Shown here: piece after piece, positions 1-16,269 of the stretch
Numbering within the stretch: position 1 is the stretch's first letter
Layout: every line of letters begins with the position of its first letter
Virus record (IMG/VR): IMGVR_UViG_2713896781_000003
Origin: a virus
Lineage: Duplodnaviria; Heunggongvirae; Uroviricota; Caudoviricetes
DNA length: 16,269 nt
Strand: one strand, 5' to 3'
The notes under the pieces: generated by a model
The model's database searches: none
The model's input: only the letters and a program-made list of their open reading frames with translations
What the model was told of the DNA's origin: nothing
Made by a program: the position numbers and the translations under genes

Positions 1-1583
1 CCACTTCCGTCAACCAGGCTTATCAGCGTGGTACCGGAGGATGGCAGCGTGATTTCACGGTCGAGCGTCAGCGTCCGGGTCTGGCTGTTCACCGCCAGCA
101 CGCGATCACCGGTGCTGATACCGGCATAGTCATCATCGCAGATTTCAATGACATCGCCCGGTACATGGCGAAGCCCTTCAGCACCCACGCTGAAATCCAC
201 GGTCTGCGTCTCCAGCAGTTCCGTTTTAATCAGCCACAGCCCGGCGCGGTGTGCCTGCCCCCGGCTGGTACAGCCAAAGGCATCCATCTTCGTGACATTA
301 CGACCGTAACGGGCAATGGCCTGCGTATCTTCAACAAGCTCTGTCGCCGTCTCCCAGCCGTTGTTCGGGTCAATCCAGTTCACCTCAACGGCATTATGGC
401 GGTCCTTCAGGGCGCTGAAGCTGTAGCGGAACGGCGCGCCATCATCCGGCATCACCACATTACTGCGGTTATAGGTCCACACCTTATCTGATGGTCGGTC
501 CTGCACGAACGTCAGCGTCTGCCCGTTCCATACCGGCATACAGCGCATCGCCGAGCAGAAATCACTGAGCACATCCCACGCCTTGCGCTGTGTGGTCAGG
601 TACGCATTACAGGTGATGCGCGGCTCCGTGCCGCCAAAGCCGTCCGGCACTGACTGGTCGCAGTACTGGCCGATGACATACAGCGCCCATTTATCCACAT
701 CCGCCGCACCAAGACGTTTCCCCATGCCGTAGCGCGGATGGGTCAGCATATCCCACAGACACCAGGCCATGTTGTTGCTGTATGCCGGTTTAAACGTTCC
801 GTCCCAGATACCGCTGTATTGCCGCGTCTGCGGGTTATAATTCGACGGCACCTGCAGAATGCGCCCGCGAAGATGATAATTACGGCTCACCTGCTGGCTG
901 CCGAACTGCTCCGAGTCCACCTGCACGCCGACCAGTGCCGTGTTCGGGTAGCACTGTTTCACATCGATGATTTCGGTGTATGACGACCAGAGCGTTTTGT
1001 TCTGCAGCTGGTCTGTGGTGCTGTCCGGCGTCATCCTGCGCATCCGGATATTAAACGGGCGCGGCGGCAGGTTATCCACCACCACCGAGGCCAGATACTG
1101 CGAGGTGGTTTTGCCCTTAATGGTGATGTCTTTTTCCGTCACCCAGCCACCGTTACGTTGTATCTGAACCAGCAGACGGACTTCCGACGGATTCCTGTCA
1201 CCCTTTGAGGTGGTTTCCACCAGTGCCTGTACACCGAAGGTAAAGCGCAGACGGTCGATGTTTGCAGACGTAATGGTGCGGGTGATCGGCGTGTCATATT
1301 TCACTTCCGTACCCAGCACCGTCTCGGAGCCGGAGGATTCAAACCCCTCCGGCGGTGACTGCTCCTGCTCACCTGCCCGGAACACCACCGTGACGCCGGA
1401 GATGTTGGTATTCCCCTCATTGTCCAGCACCGGCGTACTGTTCAGCAGCACGCTTTTTAATCCATCCACCGGACCTTCAACCGGCCCTTCACTGATGGCA
1501 TCGATCACACTCAGCAACTGCGTGGACTTCAGGTTGTCCTTCGCTTCGCGCGGGGTATGCCCCTTACTGCTGCCTTTACCCAT
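1..1583 (-). CDS. J: Tail tip / host-specificity protein J, N-terminal ~527 codons; 3' end lies beyond the window start
   Basis: Reverse-complement translation from the ATG at 1583..1581 reads MGKGSSKGHTPREAKDNLKSTQLLSVIDAISEGPVEGPVDGLKSVLLN, matching my recollection of lambda gpJ almost residue for residue. GAGG Shine-Dalgarno upstream. Not in the ORF track because it has no stop inside the window. Confidence 0.9.
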   Translation of the reverse strand, partial: MGKGSSKGHTPREAKDNLKSTQLLSVIDAISEGPVEGPVDGLKSVLLNSTPVLDNEGNTNISGVTVVFRAGEQEQSPPEGFESSGSETVLGTEVKYDTPITRTITSANIDRLRFTFGVQALVETTSKGDRNPSEVRLLVQIQRNGGWVTEKDITIKGKTTSQYLASVVVDNLPPRPFNIRMRRMTPDSTTDQLQNKTLWSSYTEIIDVKQCYPNTALVGVQVDSEQFGSQQVSRNYHLRGRILQVPSNYNPQTRQYSGIWDGTFKPAYSNNMAWCLWDMLTHPRYGMGKRLGAADVDKWALYVIGQYCDQSVPDGFGGTEPRITCNAYLTTQRKAWDVLSDFCSAMRCMPVWNGQTLTFVQDRPSDKVWTYNRSNVVMPDDGAPFRYSFSALKDRHNAVEVNWIDPNNGWETATELVEDTQAIARYGRNVTKMDAFGCTSRGQAHRAGLWLIKTELLETQTVDFSVGAEGLRHVPGDVIEICDDDYAGISTGDRVLAVNSQTRTLTLDREITLPSSGTTLISLVDGS

Positions 1584-1605
1584 TCCTCACGCTCCATAAA
1601 CGACA

Positions 1606-1625
1606 AAACCGCCCGGAGGCGGTTT
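1606..1625 (-). promoter_or_regulatory. RNA hairpin in the 60-nt I-J intergenic spacer (8-bp stem AAACCGCC/GGCGGUUU, loop UCCG)
   Basis: Perfect inverted repeat seen directly in the sequence. Followed by a U-poor tract, so probably a stabilising or processing hairpin rather than a strong terminator. Confidence 0.4.
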
Positions 1626-1643
1626 CACATAAAACGTTTTTCA

Positions 1644-2291
1644 TCAGCGACCAATCACCACAACCTGACCACCATCACCTTCATCTGCCGTGCTGATCTC
1701 CTGAGATACCACCCGGGACCCCACGCGCATTTCGCCATACAGCACCGGCAGCGAATTACCCTGTGCAACCATATTATCTAGCGAAGAAAAATAGGTGTTC
1801 TGTTTGCCGTTATCCGTGCTGGTCGCTGTGGGAGTTCTGGCTTTCGGTGCCAGCATCTGCGCCACTCCGCCCAGGACCATACTGGCCCCTGCCGCATACA
1901 TGCCCGATACAGCCGCGGCACCCAGCCAGCCCACAGGGTTCCACCATGCCACCGCAATCAGCGCCGCCCCAAGCACCACCTGAAACACACCGCCACTTTT
2001 AGCTCCCACCAGACGCGGCACGATGTGGATCACGGCACCATTTGCCAGCGGCTCATTAAGACGGGCAGACAATTCGGTTTCACCAGCATCACGCCCGGCA
2101 ATGCGTACCTGATACCAGCCGTCGCTCAGTTTCTGACGAAACGCCGGGATCTGTGTGGCCAGCGCCCGGATGGCTTCGGCCCCCGTTTTCACACGAAGGT
2201 CGATGCGGCGGCCAAATCGTTGCAAATCCCCGTAAAGGCAGATGCGTGCCATGCCCGGTGACGCCAGAGGGAGTGTGTGCGTCGCTGCCAT
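1644..2291 (-). CDS. I: Tail assembly protein I (ubiquitin-like N-terminal domain, hydrophobic central segment)
   Basis: 215-aa ORF with ATG start at 2291. Overlaps the 3' end of K by 103 nt in another frame, the arrangement I recall for lambda K/I. C-terminus ...YGEMRVGSRVVSQEISTADEGDGGQVVVIGR. Confidence 0.85.
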   Translation of the reverse strand: MAATHTLPLASPGMARICLYGDLQRFGRRIDLRVKTGAEAIRALATQIPAFRQKLSDGWYQVRIAGRDAGETELSARLNEPLANGAVIHIVPRLVGAKSGGVFQVVLGAALIAVAWWNPVGWLGAAAVSGMYAAGASMVLGGVAQMLAPKARTPTATSTDNGKQNTYFSSLDNMVAQGNSLPVLYGEMRVGSRVVSQEISTADEGDGGQVVVIGR

Positions 2292-2932
2292 TTGTCGGTA
2301 TACCTCTCTCGTTTGCTCAGTTGTTCAGGAATATGGTGCAGCAGCTCGCCGTCACCACAGTAAATGGCGGCATGATTCGGCACCGATGAACCAAAACAGC
2401 ACAGCAGCACATCGCCCGGCTGCGCCGCTGACAACGGCACCTGATACAGCCCTGTGGCCTCCAGATTATCCAGATAGAGATTCTGACCGTTACGCCACCA
2501 GTCATCCCCGCGATGAAAATCCGGCATCTCAATCCCCGCCAGATGATAAGCATCCCGAAACAGCGTGTAACAGTCCGTCACCCCGTGCTCAAAGCGACGC
2601 CCGGTGAGATGCGGCACACAGCGGAACTTGTGAATCTCACCCCGGCAGACCAGCCACCACGGCAAATCACTCTGCACCTGCAGCCGCCGGTCAGCCTCAC
2701 TCAGCCAGGGCAGACCACCGGGATGACTGTGGACCAGTGCCACAATCTCACCCTGCATCTCTGCCTGCAGCCAGTCCTCCGGAGCCATCCGGAAATAATC
2801 CTCCGGCTCACCGGAAATATTCACGCAGGGAAAATATCTTTCCCCCTCCGGCGCTCTCACCACGAAGCCGCACGACTCCGCTGGCGCACATCGCCGGGCG
2901 TGCGCCAGAATCGCTGATTCTGTCTCTGTCAT
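2189..2932 (-). CDS. K: Tail assembly protein K (MPN/JAMM metalloprotease-like domain plus NlpC/P60 cysteine peptidase domain)
   Basis: JAMM-type motifs AESCGFVV and EIVALVHSHPGGLPWLSEAD; a Cys-containing NlpC/P60-like segment HGVTDCYTLFRDAYHLAGI. Start set at the ATG at 2932, 4 nt after the L stop; the ORF-track start at 2974 would overlap L. Confidence 0.85.
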   Translation of the reverse strand: MTETESAILAHARRCAPAESCGFVVRAPEGERYFPCVNISGEPEDYFRMAPEDWLQAEMQGEIVALVHSHPGGLPWLSEADRRLQVQSDLPWWLVCRGEIHKFRCVPHLTGRRFEHGVTDCYTLFRDAYHLAGIEMPDFHRGDDWWRNGQNLYLDNLEATGLYQVPLSAAQPGDVLLCCFGSSVPNHAAIYCGDGELLHHIPEQLSKRERYTDKWQRRTHSLWRHRAWHASAFTGICNDLAAASTFV

Positions 2933-2936
2933 GGGA

Positions 2937-3635
2937 TTACTGCGAAAGTTTGTTAATGGAAAGGAAGCCGCCAAAGTTGCCGACGTTATTGCGAAATTTA
3001 CAGCCGCTCAGGCATTTGCTGCATTTATCCTTCGTGATATCGGACGTCGGCTGGTCATATTCATCCGCGACTGCCGGACCGTGATAACCGCACTCATCAC
3101 CGCGATAGGTCCAGGTGCAGGTGTTGGCCAGCATGATACGTCCTGGAAAAACAGCGCCGTCCGTTTCCGTCGGCGTGGACAGTACAAAGGAGGCACTGAC
3201 CGCGCTCAGTTCGCTGCACTGCTCGATGCGCCAGCGACTGATCACCTCCTGCTCCGGATCGGCGTCGCTGTTTCCGTTGACGAAGTTCACCGCATCCAGA
3301 AAACGGGCGTAAACCTTACGCCTGACCACCGTTCCGCCGACCAGACTCTGCATATCTTCCACCATACCGGTAACCATACCGTACAGGTTAGAAACCGTCA
3401 GTGTCGGACGGGCAGCACTGCCCTTGCCGTTCAGTTCAAATCCCGTCCCCTGAATGGGATACGCCTGATACTGTCGCCCCTGCCAGGTGACCGGCTCACT
3501 TTTTTCGTTCTGCTCATTACAGAAAAAATAACGTTCTCCACCGACCTCTGTCAGATCGATTTCCCAGAGCACCATCTGGGCTGACTGAGTGAGGCGTGTC
3601 GTCTCATGATGTGTTTCCTGTGGAATATCCTGCAT
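2937..3635 (-). CDS. L: Minor tail protein L (tail tip assembly, Cys-rich C-terminus consistent with an Fe-S site)
   Basis: 232-aa ORF, ATG at 3635 preceded by AGGAG. Sequence ...WEIDLTEVGGERYFFCNEQNE...CSKCLSGCKFRNNVGNFGGFLSINKLSQ matches my recollection of lambda gpL, which has the same length. Confidence 0.9.
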   Translation of the reverse strand: MQDIPQETHHETTRLTQSAQMVLWEIDLTEVGGERYFFCNEQNEKSEPVTWQGRQYQAYPIQGTGFELNGKGSAARPTLTVSNLYGMVTGMVEDMQSLVGGTVVRRKVYARFLDAVNFVNGNSDADPEQEVISRWRIEQCSELSAVSASFVLSTPTETDGAVFPGRIMLANTCTWTYRGDECGYHGPAVADEYDQPTSDITKDKCSKCLSGCKFRNNVGNFGGFLSINKLSQ

Positions 3636-3644
3636 CAGAGACTC

Positions 3645-3974
3645 CTATGCCACGACCTGTTCAAAATCTGCCGTTATGGTTACCCACAACGCCCCCACGC
3701 TTGCCGACCATTTACGACAAACCACCCTGATCGGCTTCCAGTCATAAGGTGGCGTCCACTGAAATGCGCGGACGCCACCGTGCCGTTCCAGAAAGGCTTT
3801 TAAAGATGGGTGTTCACATTTACGAACACGTATCGTCACGCTGTAAATCGACAACTGGTTATTCAGTCCCGCCGCACGACGCTGTTCATAACCATCGCCC
3901 AGCTTCACTGTCACCACTTTCGGCTCTGATACCACATTCATATCCGGGCGCACTTTCCAGTGAAACGTCTCCAT
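3645..3974 (-). CDS. M: Minor tail protein M
   Basis: 109-aa ORF, same length as lambda gpM and roughly half identical by eye (METFHWKVRPDM...GDGYEQR...WTPPYDWKPIRVVCRKWS...FEQVVA). Its ATG overlaps the H stop as TAATG. Confidence 0.85.
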   Translation of the reverse strand: METFHWKVRPDMNVVSEPKVVTVKLGDGYEQRRAAGLNNQLSIYSVTIRVRKCEHPSLKAFLERHGGVRAFQWTPPYDWKPIRVVCRKWSASVGALWVTITADFEQVVA

Positions 3975-6900
3975 TACCGATATGCTCCACTTAACCGACC
4001 ACCATCACGGGCCTGCTGTTGCATAAAATCCGCTGCCGCTTTTTTCCCAAGGTCATAAACCACCTTCAGGGCAGCCGGACCTATCTGCCCGTTCGTGCCA
4101 TCGTTATTGATCTCGATGTTGTACTGCGGGGCAAACATCGCCATACCTGAACCACCAATATCCGCCACAACCCCCAGCTTACCGTCAGCACCACGACGCA
4201 GTGGCAGAATGGCTTCAGGTCCAGCTTCCCCCATCACACCCGCGCCTTTTGCAAAAGCAAAAAACGTCGGACGGTTAACCACCGTGCCACTGTAACGACT
4301 CAAATCAGCAGACTGATAAATCCCCCCATTGGCATTCAGGGAAAGGCTGCTGAGATCAAATCCCAGTACACTGCCAATCCCTTTTATCGATTTCATCATG
4401 GTTGCCTGCGCCAGGATTTTCGCCATATCTGACAGCACCGAAGAGGTGAAGGATTTGAAGTTGAGTTTGCCGGTAGTGACAAAAGTTGCCAGGCCATTTC
4501 CCATGTTGCTGAAGGCTGACGAGAACACCTGTTCTGCTGTTCCTGCCGTATTGTCTGCATCCACGGTAAAATCCTGAAATGCACGCAGGACTCCGTTTTT
4601 CCAGTTACCCTGCACAACTTCAAGCTGTTGCCAGTAACGGCGATTCTCATTCAGTTGTCGGTTCAGGCTCTCCGTCAGCGCCTGCTCGGCCTTTCTGTAG
4701 TCATCCGTGTTATATGTCCCTTTCTGCTCACTATCCCGCCTCAACTGCTCCAGCTGTTGCTGGTTTTTCTGGCGAAGACTCAGTTGTACCTGATATCGCT
4801 GCCGCTGCTGATCACCCATACCCACCGTGGCGATATCCAGGTCATGTTGCTGACGCTGAGCGCGCTCTTCTTCAGCCAGTTGACTGGTCAGCTGAATTGT
4901 TTTTTTCTTCAGATCGTTGAGTGCCGTCTGTTTCTGAAGCTCCTGCTGTTTTACATCCAGCAGCATCAGTGCCTGAATCAGTTCATCTTTACGGGCCAGC
5001 ACACTCTTTTCATCTGTCGTCAGTTTTTTCCCGTCCAGATCGCTGATGCGCTGCTGCAGAGCCAGAAGCTGTTTATGCGCTTCTGTCATCTTTTCAGTGG
5101 CAATGCCTGCTGACTGTCTTGCAGCAGCAATCTGTCCTTCCACCTGTGCCTGTTGCTGACTGTACTGCAGCAATAACCGGGTGGCCTCATCATTACGGGT
5201 TTCGCGTGTTTTTTTCTTACCGGATGCCAGGGCTTTCTCGTAACGTTCATTTTCACGTTGTATCGCTGCATCCCTGACAGCCTGATCGGCGTACTGCATG
5301 GAATTAATACGCGCAATTTCACGCTGATGTCGTGCTGCTTCCGATTCATTCATCCGGTTCAGTGCAGCATTTTCAGCATTACGTCGTTTCTGTTGCTCCT
5401 GATAATTCCGCTCTGCCTGCTCTTTTGCATCCTGCAAATCCTTCTGGCGTTTTTTCTCCTGAAGATCGTTAAGACGCTGCTGATCGTATTCAACCTGAGA
5501 AGATGATGCCGTCCAGGGGAGTCTTTTCGCCCGCGACACTTTCTCCTGTAAAGCGGCAATCTGTTCATCCAGCGAGTCTTCACGACCAATATTCATGGCC
5601 GCATCCCAGAAACGACTCCACAAATCAGACAGATACTTCAGCGTACTGCCAAGCGCATTGAGGTTATTATCAATATCCGCAGTACGCCGACCGGTTTCCT
5701 CTGCCAGTGCAGACATGGCTATCCGTGCAGCATCACTGGACCGTCCCTGATCCCCAAGGACACGTATCTGCTCAAGCTGAGTGGCAGTAAGAAAATGCAG
5801 CTCATTGTCCAGAGCCTTCGCGGCATTTACAGGATCATCCTTCAGCCGCTTAAACTGACTTATGGTATCGCTGACCGACTGGCCAACCGATCGCTCCATC
5901 TGTGCGGCAGCTCTCGCCACCATACCGATATCGTTTCCACGAAATGCGCCACTCCCCACCACCTGAGCCAGCGCACCGGCTGCAGCATGTTGCGTGATAC
6001 CATTCCCGGAAATAGCACGACTGAGCGTCCACAGCTGCCCGGCAGTGACTCCGGCATAATGCCCCGTCAGCGACAACTGGCGGTTAAATTCTTCCCCCTC
6101 CTTCTGACCATCATACCAGGCTTTACCCAGACCATAGACGGCCGCGGCAATACCGCCAATAACCCCGCCCAGCATCATGCCTTTCGGTGACATCAGTGTG
6201 TCTATCCATCCGGCACGGTTAGCCAGCGTTATCCCGGATCCCCTCAGCGCACCTAAATTGCCGCGAACCAGTTCACCTATCAGAACGCCTATCTCCTGGC
6301 GGGCCGCTGCACTTTTCAGACCCAGCGAATGCGTGGCTTTTCCTGCCTGCTCCATTTTGCGGATATACACTTCTGCAGCACTGCTTACCCCCAGCTGGGC
6401 AGCCTTAGCACGAAGCAACTCAGAAGAAGAAAGATTCTGGCGGGTTGCCTGCTCTTTAAGCTGACGGATAAACGCCACTTTCTGTCGGGTAGCCTCTGCC
6501 TCAGCCTGCGTAAGAACACGGGTTTTCGCCGTAACCTCAGAAATCAGCGCCAGATAATCCTGCTGACCAATCCCGCCACTGTTTCTAGCCTGTCGGATCT
6601 GCTGCTGAATACGCTGTAATTCCTGCAGCCCCGCACTGGCCTGTTTCACACTGTCAATCTGACGATAAAACGCGGCAGCCGCTTTATCCTGAGCCTCCGC
6701 CAGAGCCATGGCCTGCGCCTGTTCCTCGCGCATTTTCTGGCTCAGTGCCTCCATACGCTGGCGGGTTTGCTCCACCTCGCGGGCCATGCGTTCATGAGCC
6801 TGTGCGCTCTTCTCCACCGTCTGCGCATGGACGGATGCGGCAGTTGCAGCCGAAGAAGCCGCCTGCATTGTCTGCCGGGCGGCCTGAGTCTGACGCTCCA

Positions 6901-7039
6901 TAAAACGCTGCATACGGGCAGAAGACCGTTCTGCATCGCTGGCTGCACCATTCAGAAGGTTTTTGATACGGGGAATTTCATTTTTAAACTCTGCCGCATC
7001 AATCCCCAAATCAATGACCAGGTTGGCTATCTGGTCCAT
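3974..7039 (-). CDS. H: Tail tape measure protein H
   Basis: About 1021 aa. Long coiled-coil Q/E/R/K-rich region and a C-terminus NNDGTNGQIGPAALKVVYDLGKKAAADFMQQQARDGGRLSGAYR that resembles the lambda gpH C-terminus. Start set to the ATG at 7039, preceded by GGAGG with an 8-nt spacer; the ORF-track start at 7069 is a TTG. Confidence 0.85.
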   Translation of the reverse strand: MDQIANLVIDLGIDAAEFKNEIPRIKNLLNGAASDAERSSARMQRFMERQTQAARQTMQAASSAATAASVHAQTVEKSAQAHERMAREVEQTRQRMEALSQKMREEQAQAMALAEAQDKAAAAFYRQIDSVKQASAGLQELQRIQQQIRQARNSGGIGQQDYLALISEVTAKTRVLTQAEAEATRQKVAFIRQLKEQATRQNLSSSELLRAKAAQLGVSSAAEVYIRKMEQAGKATHSLGLKSAAARQEIGVLIGELVRGNLGALRGSGITLANRAGWIDTLMSPKGMMLGGVIGGIAAAVYGLGKAWYDGQKEGEEFNRQLSLTGHYAGVTAGQLWTLSRAISGNGITQHAAAGALAQVVGSGAFRGNDIGMVARAAAQMERSVGQSVSDTISQFKRLKDDPVNAAKALDNELHFLTATQLEQIRVLGDQGRSSDAARIAMSALAEETGRRTADIDNNLNALGSTLKYLSDLWSRFWDAAMNIGREDSLDEQIAALQEKVSRAKRLPWTASSSQVEYDQQRLNDLQEKKRQKDLQDAKEQAERNYQEQQKRRNAENAALNRMNESEAARHQREIARINSMQYADQAVRDAAIQRENERYEKALASGKKKTRETRNDEATRLLLQYSQQQAQVEGQIAAARQSAGIATEKMTEAHKQLLALQQRISDLDGKKLTTDEKSVLARKDELIQALMLLDVKQQELQKQTALNDLKKKTIQLTSQLAEEERAQRQQHDLDIATVGMGDQQRQRYQVQLSLRQKNQQQLEQLRRDSEQKGTYNTDDYRKAEQALTESLNRQLNENRRYWQQLEVVQGNWKNGVLRAFQDFTVDADNTAGTAEQVFSSAFSNMGNGLATFVTTGKLNFKSFTSSVLSDMAKILAQATMMKSIKGIGSVLGFDLSSLSLNANGGIYQSADLSRYSGTVVNRPTFFAFAKGAGVMGEAGPEAILPLRRGADGKLGVVADIGGSGMAMFAPQYNIEINNDGTNGQIGPAALKVVYDLGKKAAADFMQQQARDGGRLSGAYR

Positions 7040-7735
7040 AACGCACACCTCCGGAAATACCTTCCCCAAGATGCATCAGTTCTTCGTCCGTTCGCTCCGG
7101 TATCCCGTTCTCTTCCGGTAAAAGGCTGAAATCAGCCACCGCAGCATCACTGCTACCGGACACCATTCTCACGATCAATGCCTTCAGCGAGGCAAACTGC
7201 GCATCCATCCACACATCACTGAAGCTCTGCATCCGGAAATAATCGCCCCACTCACCAAGCTCAGTGGCCGACATTTCCGACAGCATCCGCCGCCAGTCTG
7301 CCCGTCGGAACTCCCGGGCAAGCCGCATGACAAACTGCATTTCCCGCGTCAGGACTTTTCCGGCGTCAGCGCCTCATGCTCATCATCCCCGGCATTATCA
7401 ATGGTCCCCATACCGCTCAGCGACAGAACCATCTCCGCCCCCGCACCCAGGGCATCATACGACCATGTTGTAATAACGGATGCGCAAAGCGTCTCTACAT
7501 CCTTAGACTGATCCGCATTCCACAGTGAGCGGGAAACCAGCCAGGCATTGATATCCATCCCCATCCGCAGAAAAGCAATCTGTCGTTCAGCCTCCGGCAG
7601 TTCTCCCTCTTCGGCATCAAACTTTGCCGTTCGCTGCTGAACAAACGCCAGATATTCAATTCTCTGCAGCCCGGACAGCTCACTGAGCACCACGGACTGC
7701 TTTTCATAATTAAACGTGCCCTGTTTCAGAAACAT
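7011..7735 (-). CDS. T: Tail assembly chaperone G-T fusion, made by a programmed -1 ribosomal frameshift near the end of G
   Basis: The ORF 7011..7340 is in the -1 frame relative to G and stays open upstream to a stop at 7376..7374, so the shift must occur between about 7350 and 7373. The candidate slippery heptamer G_GAA_AAG lies at 7361..7355, two codons before the G stop. A conserved G-T frameshift is established for lambda-like tails. Confidence 0.65.
7349..7735 (-). CDS. G: Tail assembly chaperone G
   Basis: MFLKQGTFNYEKQSVVLSELSGLQRIEYLAF... resembles lambda gpG (MFLK..., ~140 aa). Start at the second of two tandem ATGs (7735), 6 nt after GGAG; 7738 is the alternative. The ORF-track start at 7777 is a TTG. 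Confidence 0.8.
   Translation of the reverse strand: MFLKQGTFNYEKQSVVLSELSGLQRIEYLAFVQQRTAKFDAEEGELPEAERQIAFLRMGMDINAWLVSRSLWNADQSKDVETLCASVITTWSYDALGAGAEMVLSLSGMGTIDNAGDDEHEALTPEKS
7355..7361 (-). other. Candidate -1 frameshift slippery site GGAAAAG (0-frame G GAA AAG)
   Basis: Seen directly in the sequence. Lys AAG to AAA slippage is well documented; the P-site GAA to GGA re-pairing would need a G-U pair, so it is weaker than the lambda G_GGA_AAG site. Confidence 0.5.
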
Positions 7736-7750
7736 CATGTTCTCCACCTG

Positions 7751-7775
7751 CAAAAAAGCCCCGGATAATCGGGGC
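7751..7775 (-). terminator. Intrinsic-terminator-like hairpin between V and G (stem GCCCCG/CGGGGC, 6-nt loop, then U6)
   Basis: On the minus strand the sequence reads GCCCCG-AUUAUC-CGGGGC-UUUUUUG, sitting in the 56-nt V-G spacer directly ahead of the G ribosome-binding site. Confidence 0.55.
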
Positions 7776-7795
7776 AAATGATGAGTATCGTCCTG

Positions 7796-8539
7796 TTAAC
7801 CTGCGGCGCTGACAGCCACCGTAGCCACTGCCACAAAATCGCCGTCAGAAGTCATGCCCACAATGCTGACACTGCCCTGCTTCACGCCTTTCACCGTGGC
7901 CACAAGCCCGTTCAGGGTCACCGTGGCAGTCTGTGGATCTGTCGAATGCACACTGATCGCTTTGTCACTGGCTCCGTCAGGTTTTACTGTAAAGGTCAGC
8001 GTGGTGGTTGCTCCCACTTTTACACTGGCAGATGCCGGTGCCACCGTCAGCCCGGTAACGCCCACGGTTTCAGTGCCTTCTTCTGCCAGATACGGACGCC
8101 CCACACCGCTGATTTTCACTGTGCGGGTCATCACGTCTTTTGAGGCAATGGTTTTACCCAGTGAACTCAGCCAGCCACGGAAAACATCAACAGTACCGTT
8201 GGGATATTTGATACGAAACGCGCAGACTTCACCGGAGTCGAACAACTGAACCAGTTTTTTCTGCCCGCTGTCACCCGGACGCCAGGCCAGCGTCGCCGAA
8301 GTATCACCGACGGATTTCTGCCCCTGGGTTGTCGTTTTCCAGTCTGCATCTTCATCATCGAGATAAGTGTCATCTTCTGCATCAGCGGTCATTTCGCCAG
8401 GTTGCAGATCCTTCACCATCGCAAGACGCAGCCAGTCAGTGTCCGACAAAGGGTTCGCAAACGCATCGCCGTTGCCGGTATACATCCAGAACGTCGTCCC
8501 CGCACCTTTCGTCTTTGCCAGTGGATTTGGTGTGGTCAT
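7796..8539 (-). CDS. V: Major tail tube protein V with C-terminal Ig-like (Big_2-type) domain
   Basis: MTTPNPLAKTKGAGTTFWMY...YLDDEDADW...FRGWLSSLGK... resembles lambda gpV. The T/V/S-rich C-terminal ~90 aa is typical of an Ig-like domain. Start at ATG 8539 after AAGGAGGTGGTA; the ORF-track extension to 8614 would overlap U. Confidence 0.85.
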   Translation of the reverse strand: MTTPNPLAKTKGAGTTFWMYTGNGDAFANPLSDTDWLRLAMVKDLQPGEMTADAEDDTYLDDEDADWKTTTQGQKSVGDTSATLAWRPGDSGQKKLVQLFDSGEVCAFRIKYPNGTVDVFRGWLSSLGKTIASKDVMTRTVKISGVGRPYLAEEGTETVGVTGLTVAPASASVKVGATTTLTFTVKPDGASDKAISVHSTDPQTATVTLNGLVATVKGVKQGSVSIVGMTSDGDFVAVATVAVSAAG

Positions 8540-8549
8540 TACCACCTCC

Positions 8550-8951
8550 TTAATTCGTGTACGTGATCTGGTACGTGATTTCCGCCATCGCCCAGGTGGC
8601 CATCTCATTATCACGTTGATAGTTAAAACCGAGTGGGATCAGGATGTCGATGAGTCCGGAAAGTGCCGGTACATCATTCAGGGCAGGGAAAATGGTGCTC
8701 TCCATCCACATATCCAGCTCTGAATCCGGTGCCTGTGCCCGGATGAAGACGGCAATATGCAGAACAGCCTGCCAGTCATCTTCATCCGTCATTTTTCCGG
8801 TGTACTGAGCATCACTCAGCCACACCGCCACGGCAGGCAGTTCCTGCGCATCAATAAATGCCGGAAGCCCGTCAAAAAACGTGGCGCTGTCTCCACACTG
8901 TTCCCGAAGGCGTGCCAGTACGGCCTGGCGGATTTGTGTATGTCGGTTCAT
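8550..8951 (-). CDS. U: Tail terminator protein U
   Basis: MNRHTQIRQAVLARL...ATFFDG...ELPAVAVWLSDAQYTG... resembles lambda gpU (MKHTELRAAVLDAL...). Start at ATG 8951, forming an ATGA overlap with the Z stop. Confidence 0.8.
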   Translation of the reverse strand: MNRHTQIRQAVLARLREQCGDSATFFDGLPAFIDAQELPAVAVWLSDAQYTGKMTDEDDWQAVLHIAVFIRAQAPDSELDMWMESTIFPALNDVPALSGLIDILIPLGFNYQRDNEMATWAMAEITYQITYTN

Positions 8952-9526
8952 CGGGTCAGCCATAACCTCAGTTGTTGTTTCAGTGCATACCCCAGCTGTT
9001 TCGGCATTTCCGCAGCAATGATGTGGTCGCGGGCATCTTCAAATGCCTGTGTCAGCGGTCCGGACAGCGGGATTTTCACCACATCAATGGGGTAACGATT
9101 TTTGCCATCAATACGTCGCATCACATGCCAGCGACCATTCGCCAGTTGCTGAATAAACGCATCCCGGAAAAGATATTTACCCACCTTCAGCACACTGCCA
9201 CGGTACTGCAGTTTTCCACCACGCCGGGCCAGTCTGACCCGGGCTGTCCCCAGCTTAATGGCGGGCAGATTGCCTCGGTTAACGCGGATCCTGGCCGTCA
9301 TTTTTCCTGACGGACTGGCTTTAAACACCCGGACACGCTGACGTACCAGTTTCAGGGGGATCCCTTTCACCTGGTTATCTCCCGCAACGGTATTCCCGGC
9401 AACCTGCCGGGTGGCAACCGAGACCGCTTTCTGTGCCACACGGTTTATCGCCCATGCGCTGGCCTGTGGCACCATACGGGTATCAAGGCTGTTCAGATTG
9501 CGGATGGCATTCTCAAGCCCCTTCAT
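8948..9526 (-). CDS. Z: Tail completion protein Z
   Basis: 192 aa, the same length I recall for lambda gpZ, at the syntenic position. ATG at 9526 preceded by AGAGGTG. Confidence 0.8.
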   Translation of the reverse strand: MKGLENAIRNLNSLDTRMVPQASAWAINRVAQKAVSVATRQVAGNTVAGDNQVKGIPLKLVRQRVRVFKASPSGKMTARIRVNRGNLPAIKLGTARVRLARRGGKLQYRGSVLKVGKYLFRDAFIQQLANGRWHVMRRIDGKNRYPIDVVKIPLSGPLTQAFEDARDHIIAAEMPKQLGYALKQQLRLWLTR

Positions 9527-9537
9527 CCCACACCTCT

Positions 9538-9813
9538 TTACTCAATAAAGATCATTGGCTTACCGTTAAAGCGTTCATGCCGTGTGACCGTCCATTGTTG
9601 TCCGTCATAAACAACGCGATCCCCGCGCCGTGGGCGGTATCCCGAAGAAAACACCACCAGAGAGACCGCAGGTCCGGACAGAGCATTCAGCTCTGCCAGT
9701 GTTTCTCCCGGGATCACAGTCATATCGACATCATTAATCGAGGCTGTCTTTCCCATCTTTCTGACCGTGATCGCATCCATACGCGCTGCCAGCCGGGAAA
9801 AGGGATCAGACAT
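9538..9813 (-). CDS. FII: Head-tail joining protein, gpFII-like
   Basis: 91 aa, immediately upstream of Z as in lambda. The C-terminal RRGDRVVYDGQQWTVTRHE resembles the lambda FII RRGD...W..DRV region. Call rests on weak similarity plus synteny. Confidence 0.65.
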   Translation of the reverse strand: MSDPFSRLAARMDAITVRKMGKTASINDVDMTVIPGETLAELNALSGPAVSLVVFSSGYRPRRGDRVVYDGQQWTVTRHERFNGKPMIFIE

Positions 9814-10129
9814 TGAGTTTTACCGGCACTTCTTCTGCACTGGTTCCGGCATCTGCCCAGACAACCCCGACCAGCGGATCAGAGCCGCTGTTAGTCAGCT
9901 GAACTTTTCCTGACTTCATATAAACCTTCTTACCCGTTTTCATGTCATCCGTTTTCAGCTTAGGCAGCATAAACACACCTTCGGTTATGCCGTCGCCTGT
10001 TTCTCCCTGTGGAATATCGGTCAGCGCCACCGCAAAAACATCACCCACCTGCACCAGATCTCCGCTGCTGATGGCTGCACTGGCAACAATCGCCACCGTT
10101 TTTCCTTCTTCTACAAAATTCTTTGCCAT
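9806..10129 (-). CDS. Small head protein, probably a decoration/cement-type protein (DUF2190-like)
   Basis: 108 aa from the ATG at 10129, preceded by GGAG with a 6-nt spacer; the ORF-track start at 10174 is further upstream. Gly/Val-rich beta-type composition; sits between the capsid gene and FII. Function inferred from position and composition only. Confidence 0.5.
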   Translation of the reverse strand: MAKNFVEEGKTVAIVASAAISSGDLVQVGDVFAVALTDIPQGETGDGITEGVFMLPKLKTDDMKTGKKVYMKSGKVQLTNSGSDPLVGVVWADAGTSAEEVPVKLNV

Positions 10130-10142
10130 AACTGTCTCCGCA

Positions 10143-10161
10143 CAGCCCCGTTCAGGGGCTG
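10143..10161 (-). promoter_or_regulatory. RNA hairpin (7-bp stem CAGCCCC/GGGGCUG, 5-nt loop) just upstream of the decoration-gene ribosome-binding site
   Basis: Perfect inverted repeat seen directly in the sequence, located between the post-capsid terminator-like element and the next gene's Shine-Dalgarno. Confidence 0.4.
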
Positions 10162-10172
10162 ATTTCAGGTAC

Positions 10173-10192
10173 AAAAAAAGCCCTTACGGGCC
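10173..10192 (-). terminator. Terminator-like element after the capsid gene (short stem GCCC/GGGC, GUAA tetraloop, then U7)
   Basis: The minus strand reads GGCCC-GUAA-GGGC-UUUUUUUG starting about 25 nt after the capsid stop codon. The stem is short (4-5 bp), so strength is uncertain. Confidence 0.45.
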
Positions 10193-10215
10193 ATCAGAGT
10201 TGTTGTCTGCGACGT

Positions 10216-12174
10216 TTACGCCGTACATTTCACTAGGCCGCGGTGATCAACTGGCGCAACACCAGCGTCAATACGTACTTTCGTTGTCACGCCATCCACA
10301 CTGAAGCCCTCCATCTGATCAATATATGGCGTATCCACACCGTTGAGATAAGCCACTTCAATCGTATCGGAGCCTTTGGACGCAGCCAGGTAGAAGGTGG
10401 TCTGGCTGTTATCATCAAGACGAGGCTCTGCAATAACGGTCGCAAAATCTTTCACCGGGTTAATAATACCGGCGTTAATGTCAGCCCCCTTGACACTTGA
10501 GGAGCGAATGACCTGGTTAGCAACAGACTCCATCGCCGTCGGTACCAGTACGAACGCAGGACGAATATTCAGATGACGCTCACCCTCTTTCTGAACGCGC
10601 ATCAACTGGCGGGCTTTATCCAGCGATGCCACGTCCATTGCCGCGCTCTCCAGTACGTTTGCATGTTTCGCTTTATCGAACAGACTTACATTATCTGTGG
10701 AGATTTTCGGGTTAGACGTCAGAATGGCATAAACCAGATCGGCAATAGTGGATTTCGCCGCACGGCCCAGCTTCATCGGGACATCGGTCAGCATATTCAG
10801 ATCATCATTGATAATGGCCTGACGGGTGATACTGAACAGCTCGCCATAGGTCGCCAGTGCAATAGTGGCCTGTTTATCTCCGGTGGTGACGTATTTATAT
10901 TCTGCCCCTTCACGCACCTGACGCAGAGCACTGAAGCCCCCCATACCCACACGATGGGCAATTTTAAAATCAGACAACTGACCTTTCCGCGTCCACTGTT
11001 CATAGGTTTCAGGGGCATCTTCCCAGCCCTGCAGAATGGCTTTGTTCGCAACATCCAGCAGAATATTACCGAAGTCAGACGTACTGTGTGTGAACGCCGC
11101 ACCGACCATCTGCATCGGGTTATAACTGGAAACACCAATACCACGTTCAGTCAGTGACATACGGGCATATTCACGCAGGGTCATCCCGTTGTAGACATTA
11201 TCACGTTCGGTTTTTTCAAACCCGGCGCGCGCCATCAGCGCCTGGCGGATCCCGTCCCCCACAAAATTACCGTTACCGGCATAAATATGAGCCGGGGTAT
11301 TTTTATTGGATGGCGTGGACTCGCGCCCCATCTCGTTCAACAGCTTTTCGCGGGCCTGCTCCAGCGAACATTCAGGATCGGCAAGACACTGAGCCTGCAG
11401 CGACTGATAACGCCCACCAAACATGGCAAACAGATCATTAATACCGTTTACACGCGCTTTTTGCTCTGCCAGGACCTGCGCACGGATGCTGTTTTCATCC
11501 ACCACGGGTGCTGCTGCCTGCACTGGCGTCCGGGAGGCTGCAGGTCCATCATCCTGTACGCGTGGAGCACTGTTGCGTGGCGGAGTAATCATATTTCGAA
11601 TGGATTCCGGCATCTTTTTAAATTCCTCTGTACGTTTTGACTGAATACATGCCATTGCCTTAACGGCTGGTGTCACCTGATCAGCAAATCCCTGTGCCAG
11701 ACATTCGGCACCGGACATCCAGGTCTCATCCGCCAGCATGGCAGCAATTTCATCGGTGGTTTTCCCGGTTTTCTGTGCATAAGCGGGTAACAGAACCGCC
11801 TCAACTTTATCGAGCAGGTCGGCATAGGTGCGCATGTCCTCCGCATCACCGCCCGTAAAGCCAAATGGTTTATGAATCATCATGAAGGAGTTTTCCGGCA
11901 TAATGACCGGGTTTCCCACCATCGCAATGACCGACGCCATTGACGCCGCCACACCGTCGACATAAACGGTAATGGACGCACCATGTGTTTTCAGTGCATT
12001 AAAAATGGCGATGCCTTCAAAGACATCGCCACCCGGTGAATTAATATGGAGATTAATGTGGGTGATATCGCCCAGTGCATTCAGATCACTGATAAACTGC
12101 TTCGCCGTAACACCCCAGAAACCAATCTCGTCATAAATATAAATATCCGCGTCACTCTGGTGACCTGCCTGCAT
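10216..12174 (-). CDS. Fused prohead protease (ClpP-like serine protease) - linker - major capsid protein (HK97 fold)
   Basis: The N-terminal ~170 aa carry ClpP-like active-site motifs (VDGVAASMASVIAMVG and MMIHKPFG). A Pro/Ala-rich linker follows, then a C-terminal ~350 aa of capsid-like sequence ending ...VAPVDHRGLVKCTA. Start set to the ATG at 12174, 13 nt after the portal stop (653 aa); the ORF-track start at 12435 would overlap the portal gene by ~250 nt. Confidence 0.8.
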   Translation of the reverse strand: MQAGHQSDADIYIYDEIGFWGVTAKQFISDLNALGDITHINLHINSPGGDVFEGIAIFNALKTHGASITVYVDGVAASMASVIAMVGNPVIMPENSFMMIHKPFGFTGGDAEDMRTYADLLDKVEAVLLPAYAQKTGKTTDEIAAMLADETWMSGAECLAQGFADQVTPAVKAMACIQSKRTEEFKKMPESIRNMITPPRNSAPRVQDDGPAASRTPVQAAAPVVDENSIRAQVLAEQKARVNGINDLFAMFGGRYQSLQAQCLADPECSLEQAREKLLNEMGRESTPSNKNTPAHIYAGNGNFVGDGIRQALMARAGFEKTERDNVYNGMTLREYARMSLTERGIGVSSYNPMQMVGAAFTHSTSDFGNILLDVANKAILQGWEDAPETYEQWTRKGQLSDFKIAHRVGMGGFSALRQVREGAEYKYVTTGDKQATIALATYGELFSITRQAIINDDLNMLTDVPMKLGRAAKSTIADLVYAILTSNPKISTDNVSLFDKAKHANVLESAAMDVASLDKARQLMRVQKEGERHLNIRPAFVLVPTAMESVANQVIRSSSVKGADINAGIINPVKDFATVIAEPRLDDNSQTTFYLAASKGSDTIEVAYLNGVDTPYIDQMEGFSVDGVTTKVRIDAGVAPVDHRGLVKCTA

Positions 12175-12187
12175 CCTGAACCAGGAA

Positions 12188-13696
12188 TTATTCTTCGGAC
12201 TGGTCGTCGGTGTGCTGCGGCTCCTGTCGTTTCGTTGCGGCACTGCTGCCTCCTTTATCACTGGCCGGATCGGTATCAAATACCAGATCCAGCTTGCGGT
12301 TTTCATCAATTTCGGCCTTGCGCCGACGTTTGACATCATCCGGATTACGACCACCTGCACGTACCCAGTCTGATTCTGTCGCCGCTCCACCACGAATCTG
12401 AATTTTCCAGGCCTCAGCCTCCTTAACAGGGTCAATCCACGGCATCACCGGTCCGGAATACACCGCGGTATACAGTGAAGAACGATCAAGATCGCGGGGT
12501 AGCCTGATAACACCGGATGCCACAGCCTGTTTCAGCCAGGCACGATACATCGGGCGGGTGACGGCACCAATAAACCAGTCCTGCAGGATCAGGTAGCCAT
12601 CAGTGGATTCAACCAGCTCCTGACGCTGGGCGCTGTAAGTGCCGTTATAGTTGCGCGCTGTACTGGAAAAACTCAGACGACTGCCCGCCGCCACGGCACG
12701 CAACTGACCATTACGAAAAGTTTCAAGATTAGGATTGGGGCGATCCGACTTCACCATTCCGATTTCTTCGCCGGGTTTCAGATCGTCGTAAATAATGCCT
12801 GGCTGAATGGTAAGCTCGCGTTCCTTATCCTTGCTGCCATTACCATCCGGTTCATAGCTCTGCCCGTCGCCTTTCCGGATGTACATCCCCAGAGCAGCGG
12901 CGATCCTTGCTGCAGTCAGCTCAGAATCTTCATACTCTTTCAGGGCACTGAGGCGGATCAGCACACCGGACAACAAAGACGTCCCGCGCATCTGGTGCAG
13001 ACGGCGAACAAATTTAAGATGCAGCATTCGCTCTGCATCCACTTCTTTGGTTTCCATCTGCCGTCCGGATACGGGACGGCTTTTATACACCAGATATTTT
13101 TCGGGACGCCCCCAGTCATCAACAAACACGCCCTGATTCAGCCTGTTGCTCTCATCACTGGTCATGGGAATAAAGTCCGGCTCGAGCGCCTCCAGCCAGA
13201 AATGAACACCGGCAGAAGGCGTCAGGCTGTTTATGCGCCCGGAAACCATCTGGGCAAACACCTCACCATCGCGCAGCCAGGTACGCAACATCAGACGTTC
13301 CAGCATCGGACGGGTAAACTGCCCGGTGACTTCCGGACTGACAGACCATTCACTCCATCGGGTGCGTATCTCCGCTGCCAGATCACGGGCAATGGCCCCA
13401 TTGCGTAATACCGGATGTGGCTCGACAATAATCCCGTTTTTCCCCACCACCCGTTCTTCCAGCTTGTCAAATACACCAATGACCAGATCGTGGTTGTTAT
13501 CAAGGTAACGGGCCTGCTCACGTAACGACACGGCCCCGTACTGGCTTAACTGGTCGGCAGTTCGGTTTTCCCGCCGGGCTTTGTGTGTCCGCGTCGTTTT
13601 TACGGCCTCATAAGCCTGGATCACCGCACGGGAACGCAGCCTTGCCGCTTTCCATCCTGGTGAAAAAACGCCAATCACATCATCAAGAATTGCCAT
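12188..13696 (-). CDS. Portal protein
   Basis: About 502 aa, positioned between the gpW-like gene and the capsid gene, with an acidic C-terminal tail. Start at ATG 13696, forming a TGATG overlap with the W stop. The call is by size and synteny; I cannot confirm the portal family without a search. Confidence 0.8.
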   Translation of the reverse strand: MAILDDVIGVFSPGWKAARLRSRAVIQAYEAVKTTRTHKARRENRTADQLSQYGAVSLREQARYLDNNHDLVIGVFDKLEERVVGKNGIIVEPHPVLRNGAIARDLAAEIRTRWSEWSVSPEVTGQFTRPMLERLMLRTWLRDGEVFAQMVSGRINSLTPSAGVHFWLEALEPDFIPMTSDESNRLNQGVFVDDWGRPEKYLVYKSRPVSGRQMETKEVDAERMLHLKFVRRLHQMRGTSLLSGVLIRLSALKEYEDSELTAARIAAALGMYIRKGDGQSYEPDGNGSKDKERELTIQPGIIYDDLKPGEEIGMVKSDRPNPNLETFRNGQLRAVAAGSRLSFSSTARNYNGTYSAQRQELVESTDGYLILQDWFIGAVTRPMYRAWLKQAVASGVIRLPRDLDRSSLYTAVYSGPVMPWIDPVKEAEAWKIQIRGGAATESDWVRAGGRNPDDVKRRRKAEIDENRKLDLVFDTDPASDKGGSSAATKRQEPQHTDDQSEE

Positions 13697-13908
13697 CAGA
13701 ACCTCGCAAGCCGGTACCCGGGATGCCCCCGTCGTCGTGTAATCAGAGCCGCAAGGCGGCGCTCCCACTCCTGCCGTCCCTGCCGGATCTCAGATAAGTT
13801 TTCCATGGTCATCTGCTGACCATTAAAGGTGACGGATTTTCCGTCCAGCACCGCCATTTCAGCTTCCGTATAACGCTGAATCATGGCTTCGATATCATTC
13901 TGGTTCAT
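13696..13908 (-). CDS. gpW-like head completion / head-tail joining protein
   Basis: 70 aa from the ATG at 13908, which overlaps the terminase stop as ATGA, with GGAGG 6 nt upstream. Small basic C-terminus ...ITRRRGHPGYRLARF resembles the lambda gpW C-terminus (...RRRGPAGF...). Confidence 0.6.
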   Translation of the reverse strand: MNQNDIEAMIQRYTEAEMAVLDGKSVTFNGQQMTMENLSEIRQGRQEWERRLAALITRRRGHPGYRLARF

Positions 13909-16007: not shown

Positions 16008-16269
16008 TACTCCTCCTGCTGTAATTCCTCCTCATCATCCGCACCTGCTTCGGTCACCCGCAGGGCTATCTGATCGCGCAGATCATCAATAATGGACTGA
16101 ACACGGCTCACAGCGGCAGGCTGCAGGCCGCAGTCACGTTCCAGAATATCCGGTAATGTCTCCAGCACCTGCACGACCGCTTTTGCCCAGATGGCAAACT
16201 CCCGTCTGTGAACCGCCCCGGAAATCCTGGAGACTAAACTCCCTGAGAAAGAGGTAAACAGGATGACTA
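16007..16269 (-). CDS. Probable terminase small subunit, C-terminal 87 codons (5' end beyond the window)
   Basis: Open frame running in from the window edge and ending ...TEAGADDEEELQQEE-stop, directly overlapping the large-terminase start. The call is by position only. Confidence 0.5.
   Translation of the reverse strand, partial: VILFTSFSGSLVSRISGAVHRREFAIWAKAVVQVLETLPDILERDCGLQPAAVSRVQSIIDDLRDQIALRVTEAGADDEEELQQEE

Follow-up and report, generated by a model that had tools for sequence, protein, structure and literature searches.

A viral stretch of 16,269 nucleotides (nt), IMG/VR record IMGVR_UViG_2713896781_000003, raises the question of how a lambdoid prophage came to carry a tail tip close to that of phage lambda on a head and tail shaft that are not lambda's. 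Throughout, we call this whole stretch the window and number all positions in it. A preliminary description of the window took its tail-tip genes L, K, I and J to be identical to lambda's and everything upstream to be diverged, as if a lambda module for host range had been set on a non-lambda chassis. We place the change at codon 21/22 of L and give it a different meaning. Very probably, it borders a block of several kb that is shared and shuffled among chassis; the junction itself would be inherited, and lambda would be a sample of the pool and not the donor. The argument depends on the following features, in which amino acid (aa) lengths and open reading frames (ORFs) are those of the window.

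3974-7039, minus strand: H, tape measure, ~1021 aa (Pfam TMP_2, TMP_4 and Tape_meas_lam_C)
3645-3974, minus strand: M, distal tail protein, 109 aa, specific to the chassis type (Pfam Phage_min_tail)
3573-3644, minus strand: L codons 1-21 with the 9-nt M-L spacer, chassis-linked and specific to the mEp460 type
3572-3574: mosaic junction at L codon 21/22, where identity to lambda goes from ~60% to ~95% within a few nt (alignment)
2937-3635, minus strand: L (Pfam Phage_tail_L)
2937-3572, minus strand: L codons 22-232, the start of the shared high-identity block (alignments)
3400-3445, minus strand: small diverged patch in L, ~45 nt, residues 64-75 (alignment with lambda)
2189-2932, minus strand: K, a 247-aa ORF (Pfam Prok-JAB at residues 4-105 and NLPC_P60 at 111-224)
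1644-2291, minus strand: I, tail-tip insertion/plug protein, 215 aa (Pfam Lambda_tail_I)
1885-2100, minus strand: variable cassette in I, 216 nt, gpI residues ~69-134 (alignment)
1-1583, minus strand: 5' part of J, codons 1-527, running off the edge of the window (Pfam FNIII-A_GpJ and Phage-tail_3)

We aligned the window globally with lambda and scored identity in 100-nt windows. The profile stays at 55-62% from the 3' end of H across M to nt 63 of L; beyond that point, L and K show 85-98% and J shows 94-100%. The change lies directly upstream of GTGCTCTGGGAAAT, corresponding to ~nt 13492 of lambda. On the M side, L codons 1-21 and the spacer are 63% identical to lambda and 98% identical to phages Ayreon and cdtI; M itself is 59% identical to lambda and 99-100% identical to the same two phages. 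Across the junction, L codons 22-232 are 94% identical to lambda and 92-96% identical to all phages of the panel described below. The M-L border also differs in layout, with the M stop codon overlapping the L start in lambda and a 10-nt insertion at that point in the window.

Divergence from lambda at four-fold degenerate sites follows the same course, starting high in M (0.53) and L codons 1-21 (0.60) and dropping to 0.11 for L codons 22-232, with values of 0.15 for K and 0.07 for J. Because the step is present at these sites too, it reflects, on this evidence, ancestry and not constraint alone. The junction has the marks of a recombinational mosaic: the step is abrupt, it includes synonymous sites, and its flanks are found in other combinations elsewhere. 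As for a cause of the breakpoint, no Chi site lies near the junction; the window has only two, at 15389 and 15857. By the measure set in the preliminary description itself, uniform identity to lambda or to a single other phage across M, L, K, I and J would speak against its reading. Lambda shows a clear step, but a prophage of Escherichia coli O145:H28 is uniformly 100% identical to the window over M, L, K and I.

The proteins tell the same story gene by gene. Identity to lambda at the aa level is 98.5% for J residues 1-527, 97.0% for K, 92.7% for L and 78.5% for I. It is 54.6% for M, 54.9% for V, 53.5% for U and 49.7% for Z, and lower still for T (37.7%), G (32.6%), H (24.9%), TerL (24.6%) and the portal (23.3%). 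Window H is 168 residues longer than the 853-aa protein of lambda. The head protein, a fusion of a ClpP-like protease with the major capsid protein (MCP), gave no BLASTP match to lambda C, Nu3, D or E, and by sequence the head genes of the two phages are unrelated. Gene order M-L-K-I-J and Pfam families are the same in the lambda tail tip (J02459, nt 13100-18903), and all of the tail-tip matches in the window are above Pfam cut-offs. Between the two, L codons 22-232, K and J residues 1-527 are 94-97% identical at the nt level and 93-98.5% at the aa level.

These values bear out much of the preliminary description, which had M at about half identity to lambda, H, V, U and Z as diverged, the head module as a different type and the breakpoint near the M/L boundary or in the 5' part of L. 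It had also expected the differences in L to cluster in the first ~100 codons, and 15 of the 17 aa differences indeed fall within the first 92 residues, nine of them within the first 46. The small diverged patch belongs to this region; a 60-nt stretch overlapping it (3365-3424) is 80% identical to lambda and 67-78% identical to phages PhiR49_2 and SPF_0923. The description of L-K-I-J as lambda-identical was only partly right: J, K and most of L agree with lambda at ~94-98% of nt, and I, at 78.5% aa identity, does not fit.

We then asked what lies next to this tail tip in other phages. We aligned the stretch that begins in the 3' end of H, takes in M, L, K and I and ends in the 5' part of J, using the window, lambda, 434, Ayreon, cdtI, PhiR49_2 and Salmonella phage SPF_0923. 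M falls into four types with at most 60% mutual nt identity, one in the window, Ayreon and cdtI, one in lambda and 434, and one each in PhiR49_2 and SPF_0923. From L codon 22 on, all seven sequences are 92-99% mutually identical. In this block, Ayreon and cdtI are just 95-97% identical to the window, no closer than lambda and 434 with 94-97%. At codon 21/22, then, identity to lambda rises from 60 to 95% and identity to same-chassis relatives falls from 99 to 96%. The idea that the block is specifically lambda's does not survive this comparison, since L22-K-J(N) (L codons 22 onward, K and the N-terminal part of J) is equally similar to phages of three other M/H types.

Two sets of IMG/VR contigs extend the panel, one made up of the 80 contigs with the L most like the window's and the other of the 80 with the K most like it. 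The L-selected set consists of same-chassis relatives, since the best 80 share L codons 1-21; all but one carry window-type M, at ~99.4% identity, and their identity to the window is only ~95.7% for L codons 22-232 and little more for K (~95.8%) and the 5' part of J (~96.2%). In the K-selected set, 45 contigs have an adjacent M of the lambda type and 23 one of the window type; 5 have the PhiR49_2 type, to which the M of one further contig is more distantly related (73% identity), and 2 have the SPF_0923 type. By the medians, K is as close to the window on window-type as on lambda-type chassis (96.4 and 96.4% identity), and the 5' part of J nearly so (96.3 and 95.9%). A two-rate maximum-likelihood change-point falls at 3572-3574 in 52 of the 53 IMG/VR loci with non-window M. 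In one IMG/VR locus, it lies at window 2936 rather than 3574. Among those loci of L088-L167 that have lambda-type M, two have a 95.6% match to the H 3' segment of the window and one a 98.4% match to its L codons 1-21. All of these exceptions, the locus with its change-point at 2936 included, may be more recombinants near the M/H border or contigs with two prophage fragments.

Abundance in bacterial genomes differs on the two sides of the junction. At a coverage of at least 80%, the L22-K block is present in 4328 of the 5426 complete E. coli genomes; its 14,826 places amount to a median of 3 per genome, and no genome has more than 14. For the window-type H3'/M segment, the figures are 1782 genomes and a median of 1 per genome. 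The 5' end of J has a pattern like that of the L22-K block.

Within the block, we measured linkage disequilibrium (LD) between chassis type and single-nucleotide polymorphisms (SNPs) in 23 window-type and 35-37 lambda-type sequences, with J aligned separately. The r2 values by segment were:

3572-3400 (L): 0.71
3400-3200 (L): 0.16
3200-2937 (L): 0.09
2937-2600 (K): 0.065
2600-2300 (K): 0.026
1-1583 (J): 0.03

Linkage to the chassis is thus lost within ~400 nt of the junction. Site-to-site r2 is below 0.1 beyond ~200 nt, and all four gametes are present in ~80% of informative site pairs.

The nearest relative of the window gives a view of more recent change. The O145:H28 prophage is 99.8% identical to the window overall and 100% identical over 1459-16208. 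The 25 differences in phage DNA all lie in three clusters in J (93-294, 861-870 and 1158-1293), which look like conversion tracts from other J copies. Within the first cluster, the 54-nt stretch 105-158 has an exact match in one IMG/VR contig (L168), which has a lambda-type chassis and is 89% identical to the window over 1-4112. No complete E. coli genome exceeds 98.9% identity over window 1-1700, and an exact 90-nt J pattern had no match among genome contigs.

From these observations, we infer that the sequences are homogenised by recombination between phages and prophages. The step at L codon 21/22 would be the left edge of a block of several kb, which runs from L codon 22 through K and I and takes in the N-terminal two-thirds of J. 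Exchange among infecting phages and resident prophages, by homologous recombination and short-tract gene conversion, would keep this block both similar and shuffled. M, H and other genes to the left of the edge, at no more than 60% identity, would be too diverged to recombine and would stay clonal within each chassis type. The codon 21/22 junction would be inherited with the lineage, and lambda would be one sample of the pool. The block would also let host-range cassettes downstream of it, the J C-terminus and stf, pass between chassis. Lambdoid mosaicism with sharp transitions and co-transferred tail modules has been described (PMC9836094), as have phylogenies that disagree between the J body and its specificity region, with recombination between the two (PMC6646904); the exchange and re-pairing of host-range cassettes suggested here would fit both.

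Could the window instead record a recent event, in which lambda's own LamB-specific L-K-I-J was gained by a single crossover near the M/L border? The sharpness of the step from ~60% to ~95% identity and the 98.5% identity of J residues 1-527 to lambda J are what such an event would leave. Yet the same junction, with M and L codons 1-21 that are 98-100% identical, is found in Ayreon, cdtI and ~100 IMG/VR relatives, and the whole arrangement in 1796 of the 5426 E. coli genomes. In addition, the block is no closer to lambda than to other chassis types, the cassette in I is a non-lambda allele, and the specificity region of J in the closest relative is not lambda-like. We therefore regard a recent gain as very unlikely. 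Since the O145:H28 prophage and the mEp460-type phages share the junction, it is inherited and not recent; every mEp460/Ayreon/cdtI-type phage that we examined has it, which disposes of the earlier suggestion that a lambda module was grafted onto this particular prophage. An account without any exchange is even less probable. It would have stronger purifying selection on L, K and the N-terminal part of J than on M, H and the shaft keep the former nearly identical, in line with the place of these proteins in a structurally conserved tail-tip hub (PMC10721106) and with an excess of synonymous over nonsynonymous differing codons (22 vs 9 in L22-232 and 24 vs 8 in J). Selection on protein sequence is hard to reconcile with four-fold sites that step as well (0.07-0.15 vs 0.53-0.60), with failure of the four-gamete test in ~80% of site pairs and LD decay within 200 nt, or with block variants that are not partitioned by chassis type. 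An assembly chimera or a window artefact can practically be dismissed as the source of the junction, which recurs identically in the independently sequenced mEp460, Ayreon, cdtI and PhiR phage genomes and in hundreds of closed E. coli chromosomes.

A more serious challenge comes from the cassette in I. The 216-nt stretch is about 50-53% identical to lambda and 91-98% identical to Ayreon, PhiR49_2, SPF_0923 and cdtI, and its 3' flank (1700-1885) is 70-92% identical to lambda; window gpI is 8 residues shorter than the 223-aa protein of lambda. The cassette has two discrete alleles, one of the lambda/434 type and the other of the window/cdtI/PhiR49_2/SPF_0923 type. We called alleles by BLAST on 128 unique haplotypes, with these counts by type of M:

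Window-type M: 71 window-type I, 4 lambda-type I
Lambda-type M: 11 window-type I, 31 lambda-type I
PhiR49_2 M: 5 window-type I, 0 lambda-type I
SPF_0923 M: 3 window-type I, 0 lambda-type I

For window-type and lambda-type M, the nominal Fisher p is 7e-15, on samples that are not phylogenetically independent. Mean r2 between the cassette and the chassis is 0.34-0.36, compared with 0.02-0.04 for K SNPs that lie between the cassette and the junction. The cassette spans the end of the gpI N-terminal domain and the hydrophobic helices H1 and H2, which have been proposed to be membrane-active; gpI sits under the C-terminal coiled coil of gpH (PMC11101478, PMC10721106).

One explanation for this pattern is that co-adaptation sets both the edge and the cassettes, with M and L residues 1-21 acting as one unit and the I helices matching the C-terminus of H. 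The renewed rise of linkage in I after its low in K and the skewed allele counts (71:4 against 11:31) speak for it. By cryo-electron microscopy, E-loops borne by the gpM ring contact a ring of gpL HDI and gpJ HDII domains (PMC10721106), so a unit of M and the L N-terminus is conceivable. But in SPF_0923 an M with only 47% identity to lambda's stands next to L codons 1-21 with 90% identity, so strict co-variation of M and L1-21 is unnecessary. Each I allele also occurs on both chassis types, the samples are related by descent, and a 216-nt heterology could evade short-tract conversion and remain linked without epistasis. We consider co-adaptation rather unlikely as the general cause, and see either gpI-tape-measure matching or escape of the heterology from conversion as a possible source of the linkage in I. 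The edge position is adequately explained by one old event, with homology ending there, although this is the least certain part of our account. A further reading, possible but held only tentatively, would make L22-K-I-J(N) a pan-lambdoid "recombination commons" with a fixed left edge, homogenised mainly by short-tract conversion among the three copies (median) of an E. coli genome. It would contain partly chassis-tied cassettes (L codons 1-21, the gpI hydrophobic-helix cassette and the J C-terminus) and would require the gpI helices to match the tape-measure C-terminus. This reading is motivated by the non-monotonic course of chassis linkage, low in K and then higher in the I cassette. If it were true, compatibility in lambdoid tail assembly or DNA ejection would have a determinant that has gone unrecognised, the match between gpI and the tape measure.

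Several points weigh against our preferred account of a shared and shuffled block. The I cassette keeps sizeable chassis linkage, so the block does not mix freely throughout. Because lambda-type loci may all descend from one ancestral junction, the shared edge amounts to at most three independent chassis comparisons, not 52. Between lambda and SPF_0923, whose L codons 1-21 are 90% identical, the edge seems to lie at the M/L border, and the codon-21 position is therefore specific to the mEp460-type lineage. The IMG/VR loci were picked by L or K similarity to the window and many come from related E. coli isolates, so the LD values and Fisher tests rest on non-independent samples. Finally, the recombination mechanism (Red, RecA or RecET, and gene conversion or crossover) is one that we infer from sequence.

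What kind of element carries this junction? All long ORFs of the window are on the minus strand, and those upstream of the tail tip, together with two intergenic or terminal features, are as follows.

16209-16269: left end of an IS3-family (IS629-like) insertion sequence (IS), which cuts off terS (end matching)
16008-16208, minus strand: 3' end of terS
13905-16007, minus strand: TerL
13696-13908, minus strand: W-like gene
12188-13696, minus strand: portal
10216-12243, minus strand: ClpP-protease/major-capsid fusion, a 675-aa ORF (Pfam)
9806-10129, minus strand: cement protein
9538-9813, minus strand: FII-like gene
8948-9526, minus strand: Z
8550-8951, minus strand: U
7796-8539, minus strand: V
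7349-7735, minus strand: G
7011-7340, minus strand: T
1600-1643, minus strand: I-J intergenic, GC-rich hairpin followed by a T run, terminator-like (alignment to lambda 15445-15490)

The window is the late (structural) region of a known and common lambdoid prophage of the mEp460/Ayreon/cdtI type. The prophage has a cos terminase, a ClpP-protease/capsid fusion head, a diverged tail shaft homologous to lambda's and a near-lambda tail tip. Pfam places CLP_protease at residues 31-191 and Phage_capsid_4 at 377-672 of the fusion ORF, and RefSeq names an identical protein ClpP-like prohead protease/MCP fusion. The preliminary description, which had already noted this fusion, was correct on that count as well. 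The same fusion head occurs in mEp460 (NC_019716 / JQ182728), Ayreon (MF807953) and cdtI (NC_009514 / AB285204). Over the whole window, Ayreon, mEp460 and several PhiR/vB_EcoS isolates are 97.3-98.2% identical at the nt level, and cdtI is 95.7% identical. The Ayreon, mEp460 and cdtI matches are collinear from terS to J, mostly in a single BLAST piece, with 97.9-98.2% identity over 16.2 kb for Ayreon, mEp460 and related phages. These three phages and the O145 prophage have the same M, L codons 1-21 and codon 21/22 junction as the window. The 1796 genomes mentioned above are those with places covering at least 80% of the window. The O145:H28 prophage (e.g. NZ_CP027362, 3.82-3.85 Mb) lies between an integrase gene and prfC, the integration site of Ayreon and cdtI (PMC5764929); the window itself stops short of the attachment site.

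Homology to the terS of Ayreon ends at window 16208. Beyond it, 59 of the 61 nt of 16209-16269 match the O145 relative's IS3-family copy at its end, from the left inverted repeat (IRL) to the ATG of the transposase (L003 7716-7776). The IS at the window terS has the opposite orientation to the O145 copy, with a junction shifted by ~2 nt, which suggests an IS-mediated inversion or an independent insertion. With terS truncated, the window does not hold an intact packaging-competent genome, and because an IS3-family element cuts the gene at 16208 the prophage is probably defective. In the O145:H28 twin (L003, NZ_CP027362), the interval 4514-9229 between attL and the truncated terS holds the integrase, a few small ORFs and the IS; the twin is without the whole early/regulatory region. 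As that region is missing, the O145 lineage appears to persist as a structural-gene remnant, one that would still be able to donate tail-tip sequence.

Other details of the tail genes resemble lambda. All of the cysteines that form the [4Fe-4S] site of lambda gpL (Cys173, 182, 205 and 212; PMC10721106) are conserved in the window; the two proteins are equal in length, align without gaps and, from residue 124 on, differ only at 124 and 185. The last 199 codons of the window K ORF correspond to lambda K as annotated. The classic 199-aa annotation of lambda K (J02459) begins within the JAB domain, and 434 and RefSeq records use the long form. The I-J intergenic hairpin region has 3-4 mismatches to lambda 15445-15490, one of them in the hairpin loop, and Ayreon and phage 434 both have an annotated terminator at this spot. 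At the G/T junction (7340-7365), the T frame runs on uninterrupted in the -1 frame past the stop codon of G, which fits the programmed frameshift of lambda-type G/GT. The heptamer before the G stop is GGAAAAG in the window and GGGAAAG in lambda.

Does a near-lambda tail tip imply that the phage used lambda's receptor? The specificity of J has been mapped to residues 960-1132 (PMC6646904), with the extreme C-terminus serving as the receptor-binding domain (PMC11101478). The window holds J residues 1-527, that is, the hub and FNIII-A domains without the receptor-specificity region. Because that region is outside the window, LamB use cannot be inferred from it. The J of the O145 twin is 1132 aa long and tracks lambda to about residue 800; the match is patchy over 800-1000 and falls to ~45% identity over residues 1001-1132. 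Residues 960-1132 of this protein are 100% identical to those of long-tailed Stx1/Stx2 phages such as CP-1639 and YYZ-2008. Ayreon J, with 1165 aa, has a C-terminal part that is different again. By comparison with the twin, then, the nearest evidence points away from LamB use.

The window shares with classic lambdoid mosaicism (PMC9836094) an abrupt boundary, one module with varied neighbours and tail genes that act as modules transferred together. It departs from the classic picture in that the boundary does not coincide with a gene border but falls within L, 63 nt from its start, and in that the block to the right of the edge behaves as a well-mixed pool, not a single transferred unit. Still, as a module boundary the junction is ordinary and inherited, the type of lambdoid prophage that carries it is very common, and its biology is already known. 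To be "lambda-like" here is to belong to a tail-tip pool held in common, not to descend from lambda. The near-lambda L-K-I-J(N) segment marks neither derivation from lambda nor use of LamB, because it is common to most E. coli lambdoid prophages and the end of J that specifies the receptor is a cassette of its own, exchanged freely. Annotation pipelines can learn nothing about the remainder of the element from identity to lambda in the block. The linkage of the I cassette to the chassis offers a modest lead on compatibility between gpI and the tape measure. More generally, the window is a small, clean example of a high-identity block that links phage chassis otherwise unable to recombine.

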